A DNA stretch of 12,093 bases from a virus. Lineage: Duplodnaviria; Heunggongvirae; Uroviricota; Caudoviricetes. Position 1 is the first letter of the stretch, and every line of letters begins with the position of its first letter. Shown piece after piece: positions 1 to 12,093 of the stretch. The position numbers and the translations under genes are program-made. The notes beneath the pieces are model-generated. The model made no database searches, had not been told where the DNA came from, and was given only the letters and a program-made list of their open reading frames with translations. The stretch lies in IMG/VR virus record IMGVR_UViG_2671180299_000005. One strand, written 5' to 3'.

Positions 1-21
1 GGTGCCTGGTGCCTCCAGGTG
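1..21 (-). repeat. 21-bp element GGTGCCTGGTGCCTCCAGGTG, copy 1 of an inverted pair (partner at 11834-11854); contains a CCTGG-N5-CCAGG dyad with an SD-like GGAGG on the minus strand
   Basis: Read directly. The reverse complement of 11834-11854 is GGTGCCGGGTGCCTCCCGGTG, a 19/21 match. On the minus strand, GGAGG sits 11 nt before the window edge, so any start codon lies outside the window. Confidence 0.6.
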
Positions 22-137
22 ACGTTAACCAGTTAACAATTAACGCCGGATACAGAGAATCCACCCATAACACTGTTTTTGGTTTTAACTGTTCCGCGTG
101 CGCTTAGCCGCATTCACCGCATCACAAAATTCACTTT

Positions 138-195
138 AAAAAGGGCGGCAGAGCAGTCACGGAGTAAAACTGATACCGCCAAACGTCACCAGAAA
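138..195 (-). ncRNA. dicF: DicF small RNA (53 nt, FtsZ-translation inhibitor) plus 3' T-run
   Basis: The reverse complement of 143-195 reads TTTCTGGTGACGTTTGGCGGTATCAGTTTTACTCCGTGACTGCTCTGCCGCCC, followed by TTTTT (138-142 on the minus strand). This matches my recollection of DicF from the Qin dicB operon base for base. It is co-oriented with and downstream of three small genes, as dicF is in ydfABC-dicF-dicB. Confidence 0.75.
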
Positions 196-536
196 ATTGA
201 TAACAGAGGGCGTTGCAGCGGGGTTGTCACTTAAGCGTATGGTCAACCTGACAACCCGGTGTCCTCAACGGGGGAAGGAATAACCCCGCCATACTTACCG
301 CCGCGCCATTTCGCGGATTGCCACAACCGGAAGCGCACGGTCGACGAAAATTTAACGACAGGCTATCTATGAACCAGCTACCTCGCCGTGCGCTTTCGCG
401 TTATGGTCTGACTTTTCAGGGAAATATCCTTTCAGTAAACTGTCAGTGCCGGATGCTCACCCGTGTCCGGCGCACGCACTCCACCTCACCCGTGGAGAAC
501 TCCTTAATTACCAACCTTAGCTTCGTTGGTTAGCTA

Positions 537-2722: not shown

Positions 2723-2744
2723 AAGCACGGTGTTCGGGGGTTTT

Positions 2745-3707
2745 ATGAGCAGCAAGCTTCATGGTCTTGTCTGGGAAGGGTGCGCCTTCACCGGCATGAT
2801 CTTATCCAGGGTGGCGGTTATGGCCCGTCTTGCAGACTACAGCAATGACGAGGGCGTGTCATGGCCTGCCATTGAAACTATCCGGCGTCAGATCGGTGCA
2901 AGAAGTGAATCCACAGTGAAATCGGCTATTGCAGAACTGGCGAAAGAGGGCTGGCTGACGAAGGAAGAGCGTAAGGTCGGTGGGCGTAATGTAAGCAATA
3001 TCTATCGGCTTAATGTGGAAAAACTCGAAGCAGCTGCTGCGGCGGCGCGTGAGTCATATAAACCGAAAAGAAAAATTAGCCCGGCAAAAAATGACCCGTT
3101 AACAGTTGACCCGTCAAATATTGCCCCCTCAACGGTTGACCCGTCAAATTTTGATGGATCAACTGTTGATAACAAACTGCCGATTAGGGGGGCGATGATT
3201 GACCCCGATCCGTCAGTATTAAAACCTGATCCGTCAGATAAAAGATCTTCTTGTCCGGACGCTTCGCAACCGGACCCGCAGACGGCTGAACAGAATTTTT
3301 TAACCCGACACCCTGACGCGGTTGTGTTCAGTGCGAAAAAACGCCAGTGGGGAAGTCAGGAAGATTTGGTGTGCGCACAGTGGATCTGGGGACGAATCGT
3401 GAGTCTTTACGAGCAGGCGGCCAGCGATGATGGCGAGATCACGAGACCGAAAGAACCCAACTGGACTGCATGGGCCAATGACGTGCGGACAATGCGGATG
3501 CTGGATGGCAGAACTCACAGACAAATTTGTGAAATGTTTGGGCGTCTCCAGCGGGATTCGTTCTGGGTAAAAAACATCATGAGTCCGGCAAAACTCCGGG
3601 AAAAATGGGATGAACTGGTTATCCGCCTGGGGCGTTCGCCCGCGCAGCGTTGCGTGAATCACATTTCTGAACCGGACACTGAAATACCGCCGGGATTCAG
3701 GGGGTGA
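2745..3707 (+). CDS. replication initiator, O-like (YdaU-like position), N-terminal winged-helix, internal origin repeats
   Basis: ORF track 2730-3707 (GTG start). The ATG at 2745 has GGGGG 5 nt upstream. It sits immediately upstream of the DnaC-like gene and contains the iteron cluster (3092-3237) that encodes DPSN/DPSV/DPSD peptide repeats. Confidence 0.7.
   Translation: MSSKLHGLVWEGCAFTGMILSRVAVMARLADYSNDEGVSWPAIETIRRQIGARSESTVKSAIAELAKEGWLTKEERKVGGRNVSNIYRLNVEKLEAAAAAARESYKPKRKISPAKNDPLTVDPSNIAPSTVDPSNFDGSTVDNKLPIRGAMIDPDPSVLKPDPSDKRSSCPDASQPDPQTAEQNFLTRHPDAVVFSAKKRQWGSQEDLVCAQWIWGRIVSLYEQAASDDGEITRPKEPNWTAWANDVRTMRMLDGRTHRQICEMFGRLQRDSFWVKNIMSPAKLREKWDELVIRLGRSPAQRCVNHISEPDTEIPPGFRG
3092..3237 (+). 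repeat. putative replication origin: iteron cluster inside the initiator gene
   Basis: The palindromic 12-mer TTGACCCGTCAA occurs at 3106-3117 and 3136-3147, exactly 30 bp apart. Degenerate copies: TGACCCGTTAAC (3092-3103), TTGACCCCGATCCGTCAG (3199-3216), TGATCCGTCAG (3227-3237). A more A+T-rich stretch follows to about 3256, the same layout as ori-lambda within O. Confidence 0.55.
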
Positions 3708-6530: not shown

Positions 6531-6746
6531 GGGTAAAAACGGTTTGCGGTAAAGCGAGAGTTAAGTAGAATTGCTGCGGGTGCTTGAGGCTGTCTGCCTC
6601 GGGCATGCCACCGTAAGGCAGACAGAGAAAAGCCCCAGTTAACATTACGCGTCCTGCAAGACGCCTAACATTAATCTGAGGCCAATTTCATGCTAGACAT
6701 ATGTAGGTTAGCCTCTTACGCGCCGAAAGGCAAGGAGAAGCAGGCT

Positions 6747-6902
6747 ATGAAGCAGCAAAAGGCGATGTTAATCGCCCTGATCGTCATCTGTTTAACCGTC
6801 ATAGTGACGGCACTGGTAACGAGGAAAGACCTCTGCGAGGTACGAATCCGAACCGGCCAGACGGAGGTCGCTGTCTTCACAGCTTACGAACCTGAGGAGT
6901 AA
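6747..6902 (+). CDS. hokD: Hok/Gef-family type I toxin, 51 aa (HokD/RelF-like)
   Basis: MKQQKAMLIALIVICLTVIVTALVTRKDLCEVRIRTGQTEVAVFTAYEPEE matches my recollection of HokD/RelF. AAGGAG lies 9 nt upstream. The track ORF 6690-6902 is an in-frame upstream extension (mok-like start with GAGG 8 nt upstream). The mRNA 5' segment 6578-6589 is complementary to the 3' segment 6952-6964, as in hok tac/fbi pairing. Confidence 0.85.
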   Translation: MKQQKAMLIALIVICLTVIVTALVTRKDLCEVRIRTGQTEVAVFTAYEPEE

Positions 6903-6970
6903 GAGACCCTGCGAGGGAGAAATCCCTCGCCACCTCTGATGAATCAGGCATCCTCAACGCACCCGCACTT

Positions 6971-6999
6971 AACCCGCTTCGGCGGGTTTTGTTCTTTTT
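6971..6999 (+). terminator. intrinsic terminator at the hok mRNA 3' end (copy 1 of a duplicated terminator)
   Basis: Hairpin CCCGC-TTCG-GCGGG followed by TTTTGTTCTTTTT. The 23-mer AACCCGCTTCGGCGGGTTTTGTT is identical to 8321-8343. Confidence 0.7.
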
Positions 7000-8318: not shown

Positions 8319-8347
8319 AAACCCGCTTCGGCGGGTTTTGTTTTTTC
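8319..8347 (+). terminator. intrinsic terminator (copy 2 of the duplicated terminator)
   Basis: Hairpin AAACCCGC-TTCG-GCGGGTTT followed by TTTTGTTTTTT. Shares the 23-mer with 6971-6999. Confidence 0.7.
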
Positions 8348-9760: not shown

Positions 9761-10135
9761 ATGCTCATAGATTTGGTTTTACCTTACCCGCCGACGGTGA
9801 ACACTTACTGGCGACGCCGTGGCAGCACATATTTTATCTCGGAGGAGGGAAAGCGTTATCGCCGGGCTGTGGCGCTTATTGTTCGCCAGCAGCGGCTGAA
9901 ATTAAGCCTGTCCGGAAGGCTGGCGATAAAGATTATTGCCGAGCCACCGGATAAGCGCCGCCGTGACCTGGACAATATTCTGAAAGCGCCGCTGGATGCG
10001 CTGACGCATGCGGGGTTGCTAATGGACGATGAGCAGTTTGATGAAATCAATATCGTTCGTGCTCAGCCAGTATCTGGTGGACGTCTGGGGGTGAAGATTT
10101 ACCCCATAATGCTTGAAGGGCAGGTCAAAAAATGA
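9761..10135 (+). CDS. rusA: RusA-family Holliday-junction resolvase, 124 aa
   Basis: ORF-track ORF. GAGG lies 6 nt upstream. RusA hallmarks are present: LPYPPTVNTYW near the N-terminus and the acidic DLDNILKAPLDAL segment. Confidence 0.85.
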   Translation: MLIDLVLPYPPTVNTYWRRRGSTYFISEEGKRYRRAVALIVRQQRLKLSLSGRLAIKIIAEPPDKRRRDLDNILKAPLDALTHAGLLMDDEQFDEINIVRAQPVSGGRLGVKIYPIMLEGQVKK

Positions 10136-10953
10136 AACTGGAAGATTTACCGAAATACTACTCCCCAAAATCCCCCGGCCTGACTGATGCATCGGCCTCA
10201 ACGTCGAAAGATACGCTGAGTATCACTGATGTGATGGCTGCGCAGGGCATGACACAGAATTGGGCTGAGATGGGGTTTTCTGCGTTCCTTGGGAAAATGG
10301 GCATTAGTATGAATGACAGAGAGCGGGCAACAGAATTGCTGACAGAATATGCACTCAGTCGGTGTGATCGCGTGGCGGCGTTAAGAAAACTCCCGGCAGA
10401 AATAAAACCGGCAGTGATGCGTATTATGGCTTCGTATGCGTTTGAAGATTATGCCCGTAGCGCGGCGAGCAAAAAACAGTGCCCCTGTTGTCACGGAAAA
10501 AAATTTATTGAAAGCGAGGTTTTTACAAACAAGATCCAGTATCCGGATGGTAAGCCGCCAGTGTGGGCAAAGTGCACAAAAGGCGTGTATCCGTCTTACT
10601 GGGAGGAATGGAAAAAAGTCAGGGAGGGGGTAAAAGTTGCCTGTCCGGAGTGTGGAGGGAAGGGAGAGGTATCCACTGCCTGTAAAGATTGTCGTGGGCG
10701 CGGTGTTGCCATTCATCGTGAAGAGTCGGTAAAACGTGGTATGCCTGTTATCAGAGACTGCCAGCGTTGTGGTGGTCGTGGCTATGAAAGATTACCTTCA
10801 ACGGAGGCATTTAATGCCATATGTAATGTAACCGATGCCATATCTCTTGATACATGGAAAAAAACAGTTAAACGTTTTTACGATACGCTGGTGGTGCAGT
10901 TTGATATTGAAGAAGCATGGGCAGAACAACAACTGAAAAAGGTGACCAGATAG
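10132..10953 (+). CDS. late-gene antiterminator Q, 273 aa, zinc-binding
   Basis: ORF-track ORF. The ATG overlaps the rusA stop (ATGA). Multiple CxxC pairs (CPCCHGKK, CPECGGKG, CKDCRGRG, CQRCGGRG). A PR'-like promoter and terminator follow immediately. Confidence 0.8.
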   Translation: MKLEDLPKYYSPKSPGLTDASASTSKDTLSITDVMAAQGMTQNWAEMGFSAFLGKMGISMNDRERATELLTEYALSRCDRVAALRKLPAEIKPAVMRIMASYAFEDYARSAASKKQCPCCHGKKFIESEVFTNKIQYPDGKPPVWAKCTKGVYPSYWEEWKKVREGVKVACPECGGKGEVSTACKDCRGRGVAIHREESVKRGMPVIRDCQRCGGRGYERLPSTEAFNAICNVTDAISLDTWKKTVKRFYDTLVVQFDIEEAWAEQQLKKVTR

Positions 10954-11057: not shown

Positions 11058-11102
11058 ATGACTGAAATCACGCCAGTACAGTAAACGCGCTGGTGGTTGT
11101 GA

Positions 11103-11553
11103 ATACCGGTCTTTCAGCTTGCTGGCTTTTTCGACAAGAGTTATTGGTGTGTCACGTTAACCGGAAAAAGGAAAGTTTGAGAAACGCGATCTGGCACAGG
11201 CGGTTATTAATGCTGCCTACCTGGTGGCCTGTGCAGATGGTGAATGTGAGGCTTCCTAGAAAGCGAAGATCGAACAGGTACTGCGTAATCAGCCTGCGCT
11301 GTCCGCGTTTACGTCAGAAATTAATGCGATTAGCGCAACCATTATCGGTCAGCTGGATACGAACTTTAAAACTGGTCGTCGTGCGGCGTTACGTGAGATC
11401 GAGGATGTGAAACACGATACGCGTGAAGCGGAAGATGTGCTGGATGTGGCGGTGGCCATTGCGGAGGCAGACGGCGAAATTGAGCCGGAAGAGCGCAAGG
11501 TGCTGGAAGAGATTGCCGGTGTTCTGGGTCTTCGTCTGGAGAATCACCTGTGA
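11103..11553 (+). pseudogene. decayed TerB-domain gene: no start codon, apparent frameshift, in-frame TAG
   Basis: The frame ending at the TGA (11551-11553) encodes two TerB-like repeats (AAYLVACADGECEAS*KAKIEQVL and AVAIAEADGEIEPEERKVLEEIAGVLGL), interrupted by TAG at 11257-11259. There is no ATG, GTG or TTG before 11224. A TerB-like FFDK N-terminus lies in another frame (11103-11180), which suggests an indel near the A-run at 11164-11169. Confidence 0.4.
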
Positions 11554-11717
11554 CGGTAAAACTGCGCCTGGCTGTGGCTGCACTCCTGCTGTTTCTGGTG
11601 GTGATGGTGGATTTCACCAGCAGAATCATGTCGGTGCTGGCGGATGGGGTGCTGGTCTGCGGCATTATGGTATTGCTGTGGCCGGTGATAAAAAGAAACA
11701 GCCTGCATAATGCTTGA
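11550..11717 (+). CDS. small hydrophobic protein, 55 aa (VTVKLRLAVAALLLFLVVMVDFTSRIMSVLADGVLVCGIMVLLWPVIKRNSLHNA)
   Basis: Hand-translated. The GTG start overlaps the TerB-remnant stop (GTGA). Two hydrophobic stretches. No independent RBS; it may be a decayed coupled partner. Confidence 0.3.
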   Translation: MTVKLRLAVAALLLFLVVMVDFTSRIMSVLADGVLVCGIMVLLWPVIKRNSLHNA

Positions 11718-11833
11718 TTTTTTTGTTTGCTGTTTATTAAAAACACTTCTGCATGGTGAATCCCCCTGTGCGGTGGGGCAATCAGCAAGAAGGAATATGG
11801 GGTAATCGCGGATTCAGGTGCTGATACTGAATT

Positions 11834-11854
11834 CACCGGGAGGCACCCGGCACC
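11834..11854 (+). repeat. 21-bp element CACCGGGAGGCACCCGGCACC, copy 2 of the inverted pair (partner at 1-21), dyad CCGGG-N5-CCCGG
   Basis: Read directly. GGAGG at 11840-11844 lies 11 nt upstream of an ATG at 11855. Confidence 0.6.
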
Positions 11855-11918
11855 ATGCTTTGCCACAAAAGTGTTATTTCTGTTTTTCTCAAACTATCAT
11901 CGTTATCCCTTTATTTTC

Positions 11919-11947
11919 GGCTGCGCATGGCGCGGCTTTTTTTTTAC
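11919..11947 (+). terminator. possible intrinsic terminator
   Basis: Short hairpin GGCTGCGC-ATG-GCGCGGCT followed by nine T (11937-11945). The stem is short and partly wobble-paired. Confidence 0.3.
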
Positions 11948-12031: not shown

Positions 12032-12093
12032 ATGTCGATTAAACATTATGATGTTGTCAGGGCGGCGTCGCCGTCAGACCTTGCGGAAAAGCT
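12032..12093 (+). CDS. 5' end of an unidentified gene (MSIKHYDVVRAASPSDLAEK...), truncated by the window edge
   Basis: The ATG at 12032 follows GGGAGA with a 6-nt spacer. The frame is open to the window end. Only 20 codons are visible, so no family call. Confidence 0.3.
   Translation, partial: MSIKHYDVVRAASPSDLAEK

Follow-up and report, generated by a model that had tools for sequence, protein, structure and literature searches.

The locus

The window, that is, the whole stretch of 12,093 nucleotides that was analysed, is the early region of a lambdoid prophage integrated beside tRNA-Ser/mtfA in E. coli. The following genes were assigned.

Minus strand: dicF (143-195), ydfC, ydfB, ydfA and racR
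143-195, minus strand: dicF sRNA gene with its terminator (Rfam RF00039, 76.7 bits), directly upstream of copy 1 (see below) in the transcript
Plus strand, in this order: ydaS/ydaT-like genes, replication genes, hok/sok, RusA, a Q-type antiterminator (10132-10953), TerB and DUF3927
12033-12093, plus strand: start of a late-region gene (DUF1737/SASA esterase family), assigned from the annotation of relatives and cut by the window end; the ORF starts are MSIKHYDVVRAA / MTFKHYDVVRAA

The two ends of the window carry copies of one short element. Copy 1 lies at the left edge and is read on the minus strand. Copy 2 lies on the plus strand downstream of TerB and DUF3927 and is followed by a terminator and then by the esterase gene. 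The TerB gene upstream of copy 2 (11093-11717 of the window; L001 25191-25553) is annotated in close relatives as a pseudogene, interrupted by an internal stop.

The 21-bp element

The window starts with GGTGCCTGGTGCCTCCAGGTG, and positions 11834-11854 read CACCGGGAGGCACCCGGCACC. An earlier, sequence-only reading of the window had reported these as an inverted 21-bp match. The match is real, and a repeat search extends it to 22 nt (1-22 against 11833-11854, 91% complementary), with identity at 20 of the 22 positions between 1-22 and the reverse complement of 11833-11854. Exactly two matches to the degenerate 21-mer are present in the window, the expectation from 200 shuffles being 0.00, and the match between the window ends is not due to chance. 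The copies are inverted because each of them is read in the sense direction of its own divergent phage arm. Both differences fall, as reported, on paired positions, namely the third pair of a 5-bp stem (CCUGG/CCAGG against CCGGG/CCCGG). The predicted covariation of these two positions was also found: among the 136 listed matches, they are either G/C (110) or U/A (26) and nothing else.

The same reading had allowed that the match could be part of a longer common repeat. Indeed, both copies match one covariance model of about 120 positions. That the similarity of the copies reaches far past 21 bp counts against the interpretation then given to the element, and the observation itself stands.

That interpretation was an RNA hairpin sequestering GGAGG as a Shine-Dalgarno box 11 nt before the start of a small ORF, or else a dyad protein-binding site. 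In copy 2 there is an ATG at 11855, 11 nt past GGAGG; the spacing is plausible and a 42-aa ORF follows. However, the ATG said to stand at the same distance from copy 1 does not exist: relatives that are not cut there read GCAUCA (GCAUCACAAAA...). In strain A1, where the sequence continues leftward, GCAUCACAAAACUCAUUGUUGAGGGCGCGAUA-AUG comes after copy 1; the start of dicB is 33 nt beyond the element, and this gene has a Shine-Dalgarno box of its own. The expectation that dicB should follow copy 1 was correct, as the leftward extension in relatives puts this gene just past the window edge. Directly after the element the sequence differs between members (AUGC, GCAUC, ACAAC, GUAGU and others), in step with bases located 75-110 nt upstream, which makes the ATG at 11855 a helix strand and not a conserved start codon. 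The ORFs beginning with this ATG are unrelated between relatives and extend beyond the terminator, and divergent members of the family have lost GGAGG. With neither a conserved start codon nor a conserved ORF, sequestration of a Shine-Dalgarno box is extremely unlikely and was rejected.

A site acting at the level of DNA, either a protein-binding dyad or a recombination hotspot at mosaic joints, would agree with the 21-mer being almost invariant as DNA across genera and with the window and strain A1 sequences parting immediately after it. On the other hand, the stem passes through G.U (G.T) states that break the symmetry of the DNA and preserve the pairing of the RNA, and it always lies within four further covarying helices and in the sense orientation to transcription. 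The wobble states and the surrounding helices led us to reject the dyad site, and we regard any DNA-level element here as highly improbable. Thus, of the proposed selection on structure, the RNA helix is retained, with compensatory changes at three of the five pairs and G.U intermediates, and neither the ribosome-binding site nor the DNA dyad.

Architecture of the RNA domain

Both copies of the hairpin are very probably helix P5 of a pseudoknotted RNA domain of about 110-135 nt (below, the module), which is the core of the prophage sRNA family STnc100; this assessment covers identity and structure together. In the Rfam model of STnc100, the hairpin is the last internal one of a multi-branched fold, and the sequence CACC-AUGC after it pairs with GCAUGGUG about 95 nt upstream.

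The order of parts in the module is P1, a junction AAU, the P2 hairpin with the loop CUnnGCG, the pseudoknot, a variable insert P3, P4, P5 and the 3' strand of P1 (P1'). The partners in the pseudoknot are the stretch just past P2 and the loop of P4. P5 consists of 5 bp and the pentaloop AGGCA. The 21-mer comprises one nucleotide pair of P4, an unpaired A, the whole of P5 and the inner four bases of the P1 3' strand. P1 and P5 are predicted to make up a 13-bp coaxial stack, and the first and last hairpins have conserved loops: CUnnGCG in P2 and the nearly invariant loop of P5.

A covariance model, R1, was built from 26 diverse modules. In the window it finds exactly two modules, with 95.6 bits and, for the one cut by the edge, 69 bits. 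R1 also detects modules in Qin of K-12, Rac-SA53, P7 and H-19B. When the two copies were aligned with the versions from K-12, Rac-SA53 and P7, they had blocks in common over approximately 115-135 nt, the 21-mer being the longest block. An alignment of the full module by MAFFT/RNAalifold recovered P1, P2 and P5 alone; it misses the remaining helices because the middle of the module varies in length.

The features of copy 2, which is complete, are as follows.

11714-11742, plus strand: candidate promoter TTGATT-N17-TTAAAA, weak, proposed from reading the sequence and absent from the calls of the promoter scan
11751-11858, plus strand: copy 2, complete module (P1-P2-PK-P3-P4-P5-P1'), core of an STnc100-type unit (Rfam RF02076; R1)
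11751-11758, plus strand: P1 5' strand GCAUGGUG, pairing with 11851-11858 in the Rfam and R1 alignments
11762-11777, plus strand: P2 hairpin with the conserved loop CUnnGCG (pairing and loop conservation in the alignments)
11781-11786, plus strand: pseudoknot 5' strand AUCAGC, complementary to 11820-11825
11810-11834, plus strand: P4 hairpin (GGAUUCAG / CUGAAUUC; Rfam structure line, alignment columns and pseudoknot test)
11820-11825, plus strand: pseudoknot 3' strand GCUGAU within the P4 loop (pseudoknot test)
11836-11850, plus strand: P5, the originally reported hairpin, CCGGG AGGCA CCCGG, with no spacer before the P1 3' strand (Rfam, R1, alignments)
11851-11858, plus strand: P1 3' strand CACCAUGC, which includes the supposed start codon at 11855 (Rfam and covariation of pairs)
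11859-11918, plus strand: spacer between module and terminator, seed-like region of the sRNA unit (divergence from strain A1; spacers of the family)
11919-11946, plus strand: intrinsic terminator, an 8-bp stem followed by a U run (terminator scan)

A divergent subfamily lies between two canonical STnc100 units (L023 3370-3482; also L045, L068, L074 and L092). It has CCGG-GAAA-CCGG as P5 and UCAG as the P2 loop. As the loops of P2 and P5 are both altered here, there is a hint of a loop-loop contact in the canonical fold.

Covariation and the pseudoknot

A motif scan of IMG/VR gave at least 120 loci, the sets of homologues being seeded with the exact P5 motif. The sequence GGUGAAU was observed 73-108 nt upstream of the element in 127 of the 136 listed matches. 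Across these matches, changes in the 3-6 bases that precede GGUG are accompanied by changes in those that follow CACC (GCAU/AUGC, GAUGC/GCAUC, GUUGU/ACAAC, UACUAC/GUAGU and others), so that the outer pairs of P1 covary; the whole helix does so in the alignments A2 and A3. The inner clamp GGUG/CACC is swapped for UAUG/CAUA, AACG/CGUU or GAUG/CAUC in the set with one genome per species. In the same set, three of the five pairs of P5 have undergone compensatory changes (C-G/U-A; G-C/U-A/A-U; G-C/U-A), and G.U occurs in addition.

In the two model-collected alignments, A2 and A3, which are fitted to the structure of the model, 96.2% and 94.8% of cells are paired, compared to 84% after shuffling of columns and 38-50% when the partners are slid by 1-3 columns. 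The double-sided changes number 200 and 253 against 58 and 66 expected, the counts being of related sequences and not of independent events. In P2, 98.6-99.4% of cells are paired and three to four of the five pairs have double-sided changes. The consensus fold of STnc100 (closing helix, P2, P4, P5) is kept, with covariation, and both copies align to it. Divergent members without GGAGG have the P5 loops AAGCA, ACGCA, CAGCA and UAGCG, and one subfamily has a GAAA tetraloop.

The pseudoknot strands are AUCAGC/GCUGAU in copy 2 and CAGUUAA/UUAACUG in copy 1; in all, there are 52 variants of this helix. Fixed alignment columns are unusable for counting it, as some subfamilies are one column out of register. 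The test was therefore made in narrow windows only, with mismatched controls in which partners were swapped between types. At least six contiguous pairs with the own partner were found in 67% of the RNAs among the listed matches, versus 7.3% with swapped partners. The Rfam structure of STnc100 lacks the pseudoknot and represents the RNA as a single sRNA, whereas in this analysis the core of about 115 nt behaves as a separable module. Neither the pseudoknot nor the modular usage appears to have been described so far.

Copy 2

The Rfam model RF02076 (STnc100) matches 11722-11894 with 100.8 bits, well above its gathering score of 47, and copy 2 is thus a member of the family. R1 gives 95.6 bits over 11747-11862. 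Copy 2 shares with STnc100 the closing helix, P2, P4 and P5, the location in the prophage late region and the downstream terminator. It is the 5' body of an STnc100/PasD-type unit, which consists of the module, a G-poor spacer of about 60 nt and an intrinsic terminator (stem 11919-11937, then a U run). The unit is flanked by the Q/TerB/DUF3927 genes on one side and the esterase/lysis genes on the other. The sequences of the window and of strain A1 part directly after CACCAUGC. The promoter of this presumed stand-alone gene is weak, so the 5' end may lie upstream of P1. Copy 2 is therefore of a known kind, an ordinary member of a catalogued prophage sRNA family.

STnc100 and PasD are Hfq-associated prophage sRNAs with a common structure, whose function is unknown (10.64898/2026.05.13.724894; PMC8550237). 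PasD1 and PasD2, from EPEC prophages, are Hfq-dependent (PMC8550237). They are likened to the module here by their description; the PasD papers contain neither the pseudoknot nor copies in dicB or kilR leaders.

Copy 1 in the dicF-dicB spacer

The features of copy 1 are the following.

1-126, minus strand: copy 1, the same module (R1); the outer 8 nt of the P1 3' strand are beyond position 1
5-19, minus strand: P5 of copy 1, CCUGG AGGCA CCAGG (sequence, Rfam and R1 alignments)
127-142, minus strand: conserved linker AAAGUGAAUUUUG..., from the DicF terminator tail to the module (comparison of upstream sequences)

R1 matches copy 1 with 69 bits over positions 1-118 of the window and with 89.6 bits in a relative that is not cut (L002 12493-12626). 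The STnc100 model gives 30.1 bits in the edge-cut window and 38.8 bits in L002, where model positions 21-154 only are matched. Both scores are below the gathering score of 47. Copy 1 is homologous to the core of STnc100 and yet lies outside the family as Rfam defines it. It differs from STnc100 further in having no terminator and no promoter and in its P1 of 12 bp; neither a promoter nor a terminator was found at this copy, and dicB follows. Copy 1 is thus a paralogue within the dicBF transcript, with the DicF terminator on one side and dicB on the other, and a new, sub-threshold variant of the STnc100 kind in the dicB leader.

The same arrangement exists in the Qin prophage of K-12, where the module (L125 1152-1285, 82.3 bits) is preceded by dicF (1083-1135) and followed by dicB (1310). 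The copy that precedes dicB has apparently gone unrecognised so far, and the literature searched reports nothing in the dicF-dicB spacer. The dicBF transcript is processed, with RNase III and RNase E sites mapped solely 5' of DicF (10.1101/2023.04.14.536235), and none has been reported for the spacer that holds the module. The dicBF study detected no RNA species spanning dicF and dicB (10.1101/2023.04.14.536235). Transcriptome-wide RNase III papers contain no site in this spacer and cite only the older DicF work.

In strain OkiPb01684 an IS3-family element (L001 12703-14073) is inserted exactly at the dicB start (...GAGGGCGCGAU|GAACCGCCCCGGG). The 'partial DicB' CDS assigned there by PGAP (13969-14073) actually covers copy 1 of the module and is probably an annotation artefact. 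This suggests that annotation pipelines miscall the module region.

The region upstream of dicF (205-335 of the window, minus strand; L125 946-1075) contains GUUGUGGCAAUCCGCGAAAUGGCGCGG...CUGCAAC, which resembles P1 and P2 of a decayed module. In K-12, the published 190-nt DicF species, whose 5' end is made by RNase III, would begin about 6 nt before the GUUGUGGCAAUCCGCGAAAUGGCGCGG region. A third, decayed module at this place (approximately 205-335, minus strand) was considered and rejected, as R1 gives 6.8 bits (E = 3.3) and the z-score of the fold is -0.07.

Distribution of the module

In the scan limited to a single genome for each species, the exact 21-mer was found across Enterobacterales; in the few cases that lack a module, the match is due to chance in a high-GC genome. 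The modules fall into two classes by the variable pair of P5.

All 26 listed matches of the U-A class (CCUGG/CCAGG) lie directly after a DicF-like terminator and are joined to it by the conserved linker. The linker is identical in 12 of 12 distinct upstream sequences of this class among the listed matches, and the DicF-like bodies differ. The next start codon, 32-44 nt past the module, is that of dicB, of kilR or of another small ORF, and each of these has a Shine-Dalgarno box of its own; for dicB and kilR, the box follows the module at a distance of more than 20 nt. The listed U-A modules were found to have neither a promoter nor a terminator. In Rac-SA53, the module is upstream of kilR. Thus the same core fold, unannotated and sub-threshold, occurs in the leaders of two classic prophage inhibitors of cell division, dicB (in Qin, K-12 included) and kilR (Rac-type). 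It likewise occurs, as a closely related module, in the terB leader of P7, 33 nt upstream of terB in the ban operon and after two tRNAs; the P5 of this module is of the G-C type with one G.U pair, and hence it is not an instance of the U-A class. The terB gene directly downstream of the P7 module is intact.

The G-C units are the Rfam STnc100 hits and are often tandem and beside phage tRNA clusters. Most G-C modules among the listed matches are followed by a spacer and then by an intrinsic terminator of widely varying sequence. Their spacers have a median length of 28 nt and 12.5% G and are unstructured; motifs complementary to the Shine-Dalgarno box occur in 14 of 54 spacers in the listed matches. 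A canonical sigma-70 promoter with the -10 box ending 8 nt before GGUG precedes 17 of the 80 distinct units listed (0.7 expected under the strict rule). The E. coli type units, copy 2 included, have a weak match to a promoter only. DicF-like sRNAs lie about 9 nt downstream of G-C modules in some phages. In H-19B, the module is approximately 105 nt downstream of stx1B, which agrees with the report of an STnc100 copy just downstream of stx2 in Stx2 phages (PMC12370729). As the context varies and the module is constant, the module is the repeating conserved unit and the RNA following it is interchangeable.

Several further arrangements were observed. Modules abut tRNA-Met(CAU) genes with a gap of 0-8 nt to the 5' end of the tRNA (L213 4789-4975; L204 4617-4824), and in Stx-type phages the Met/Arg/Arg tRNA island has clustered STnc100 units next to it (L023). 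In Pantoea, a plasmid and a chromosome (L166 946-1992; L190 6397-7837) contain five to six modules nearly back to back, some of them 5 nt apart. Some neighbouring modules in these arrays have neither a seed nor a terminator between them, and one module has AACG/CGUU in place of the inner clamp GGUG/CACC.

Cis-acting alternatives

With a single sense-oriented copy per divergent operon, the arrangement resembles nutL/nutR of lambda or putL/putR of HK022, which are also RNAs acting in cis and encoded once per arm, and P5, with its 5-bp stem and pentaloop, resembles boxB. However, boxA has 7 matches against 8.6 expected and none of them is adjacent to the hairpin; the loop, AGGCA, does not resemble GNRA; both copies lie at a great distance from pL and pR and are not promoter-proximal; and no N gene is annotated in the prophage. 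The module is absent from lambda and HK022, the search of the latter with R1, for similarity to the module only, giving nothing above 9.6 bits. The terminator that follows the module is evidently functional, given that short RNAs belonging to this family accumulate (PMC8550237). With boxA at the level of chance, another loop type and no N gene, a lambda-type nut site was rejected, and an antitermination RNA of the nut or put kind is scarcely credible here.

A riboswitch-like aptamer or attenuator would control the terminator (copy 2) or the Shine-Dalgarno box of dicB (copy 1) through a P1 dependent on a ligand or factor. The layout would fit: a promoter, a conserved multi-helix domain closed by P1, a variable linker, and a terminator or Shine-Dalgarno box. 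However, the 3' strands of the modules pair with their own terminators no better than with unrelated ones (-10.35 and -10.34 kcal/mol, respectively), and this equality of duplex energies between matched and mismatched terminators was taken to rule the mechanism out. In addition, the spacers are unstructured, the Shine-Dalgarno boxes of dicB and kilR are outside P1, and modules also stand before tRNAs and before other modules. We consider such regulation very unlikely.

Possible function of the module

We propose that the module is a stabiliser and insulator of the RNA that follows it. P5 would be an architectural RNA helix stacked directly on P1, and the P5 loop, GGUGAAU and the P2 loop may form a sequence-specific surface, serving as a tertiary contact or as a handle for a conserved partner. 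The domain is predicted to fold autonomously, with its 5' side buried in P1 and a compact knot presented outside. It could then shield the downstream RNA (an sRNA seed with its terminator, the mRNA of dicB, kilR or terB, or a tRNA) from 5'-end-dependent decay and from misfolding, and mark the boundary of a unit in polycistronic phage transcripts. Regulation through occlusion of a Shine-Dalgarno box would have no part in this. The stabilising and insulating role, which we deduce from anatomy, position and context, is put forward tentatively. The explanation as a whole, combining the identity of the module, its fold and this role, is on balance likely.

Stabilisers of the kind found in the ompA 5' UTR are simple hairpins and have no sequence conservation. 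They are similar to the module in that a base-paired 5' end stands before the functional part of the RNA. In contrast, the module has five helices, a pseudoknot and invariant loops, and it can also be found at internal positions and in arrays. Since a simple hairpin is enough for protection of a 5' end, the elaborate invariant fold looks over-engineered for this role. The back-to-back arrays, where there is nothing to protect, are better suited to the module itself being the payload.

According to the latter explanation, the module would be a trans-acting structured RNA that binds a conserved protein of the host or phage as a decoy, sponge or cofactor, and the terminator, tRNA or module that follows would merely set the 3' end. 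The conservation is the inverse of that in ordinary sRNAs, the module being nearly invariant across Enterobacterales and the spacer hypervariable; the loops and junctions are invariant; and the arrays contain five to six modules without seeds between them. However, RIL-seq ranks members of the family as Hfq-dependent base-pairing sRNAs (PMC8550237), and copy 1 is inside an mRNA leader with no obvious route of release. On this evidence, a payload role is rather unlikely.

The modules could also be processing cassettes that punctuate the transcript, where a tRNA-like or nuclease-recognised fold, or a self-cleaving ribozyme, frees the downstream RNA by cleavage at the border. Modules stand at a short and fairly fixed distance before very different RNAs, tRNA-Met (0-8 nt) and DicF-like sRNAs (about 9 nt), and some are beside phage tRNA clusters. 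The 13-bp stack of P1 and P5 with conserved terminal hairpin loops has a tRNA-like topology, the pseudoknotted fold is compact and has invariant unpaired bases, and the operon transcript of K-12 is heavily processed (10.1101/2023.04.14.536235). On the other hand, ARAGORN and the Rfam models of tRNA, tmRNA and ribozymes gave no match to the module and called only the genuine neighbouring tRNAs. The sRNAs of the family, 80-240 nt in length, suggest that module and seed remain joined (PMC8550237), and arrays of modules without cargo are left unexplained. Punctuation by cleavage thus seems quite unlikely.

A broader statement would be that temperate enterobacterial phages use the core of about 115 nt as a portable and autonomous RNA device, either a punctuation or self-cleaving element or a protein-binding decoy, placed before sRNAs, tRNAs and genes of toxic small proteins (dicB, kilR), including the dicF-dicB spacer of K-12. 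Taken jointly, this is doubtful. The invariant loops may imply a specific partner. The function of STnc100 and PasD is now testable in K-12, where assays for the toxicity of dicB and for the processing of DicF exist.

Other elements of the window

The sok antitoxin RNA (6578-6752, 114 bits) lies beside a hokD-type toxin gene, and the two form a type I toxin-antitoxin cassette in the nin region. A terminator-like 27-nt hairpin AACCCGCTTCGGCGGGTTTTGTT occurs twice, at 6971-6997 and 8320-8346, with 96% identity; the copy at 6971-6997 overlaps a weak match to isrK (6911-6992, 27.7 bits versus a gathering score of 50).

The racR gene is flanked by a perfect 21-nt inverted repeat TTGTCAATAGGCTATGCCTAA (1255-1301; 1274-1294 / 1919-1939), alongside which there are direct repeats of ATAGGnnATGCCTAAT. 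The repeats around racR are probably the operator sites of the immunity region. Finally, two 33-nt arms, 76% complementary and 1 nt apart (3101-3167), consist of GTTGACCCGTCAAAT-like repeats and fall within the ORF 2730-3707, a replication-initiator-like gene. These repeats are probably origin iterons.
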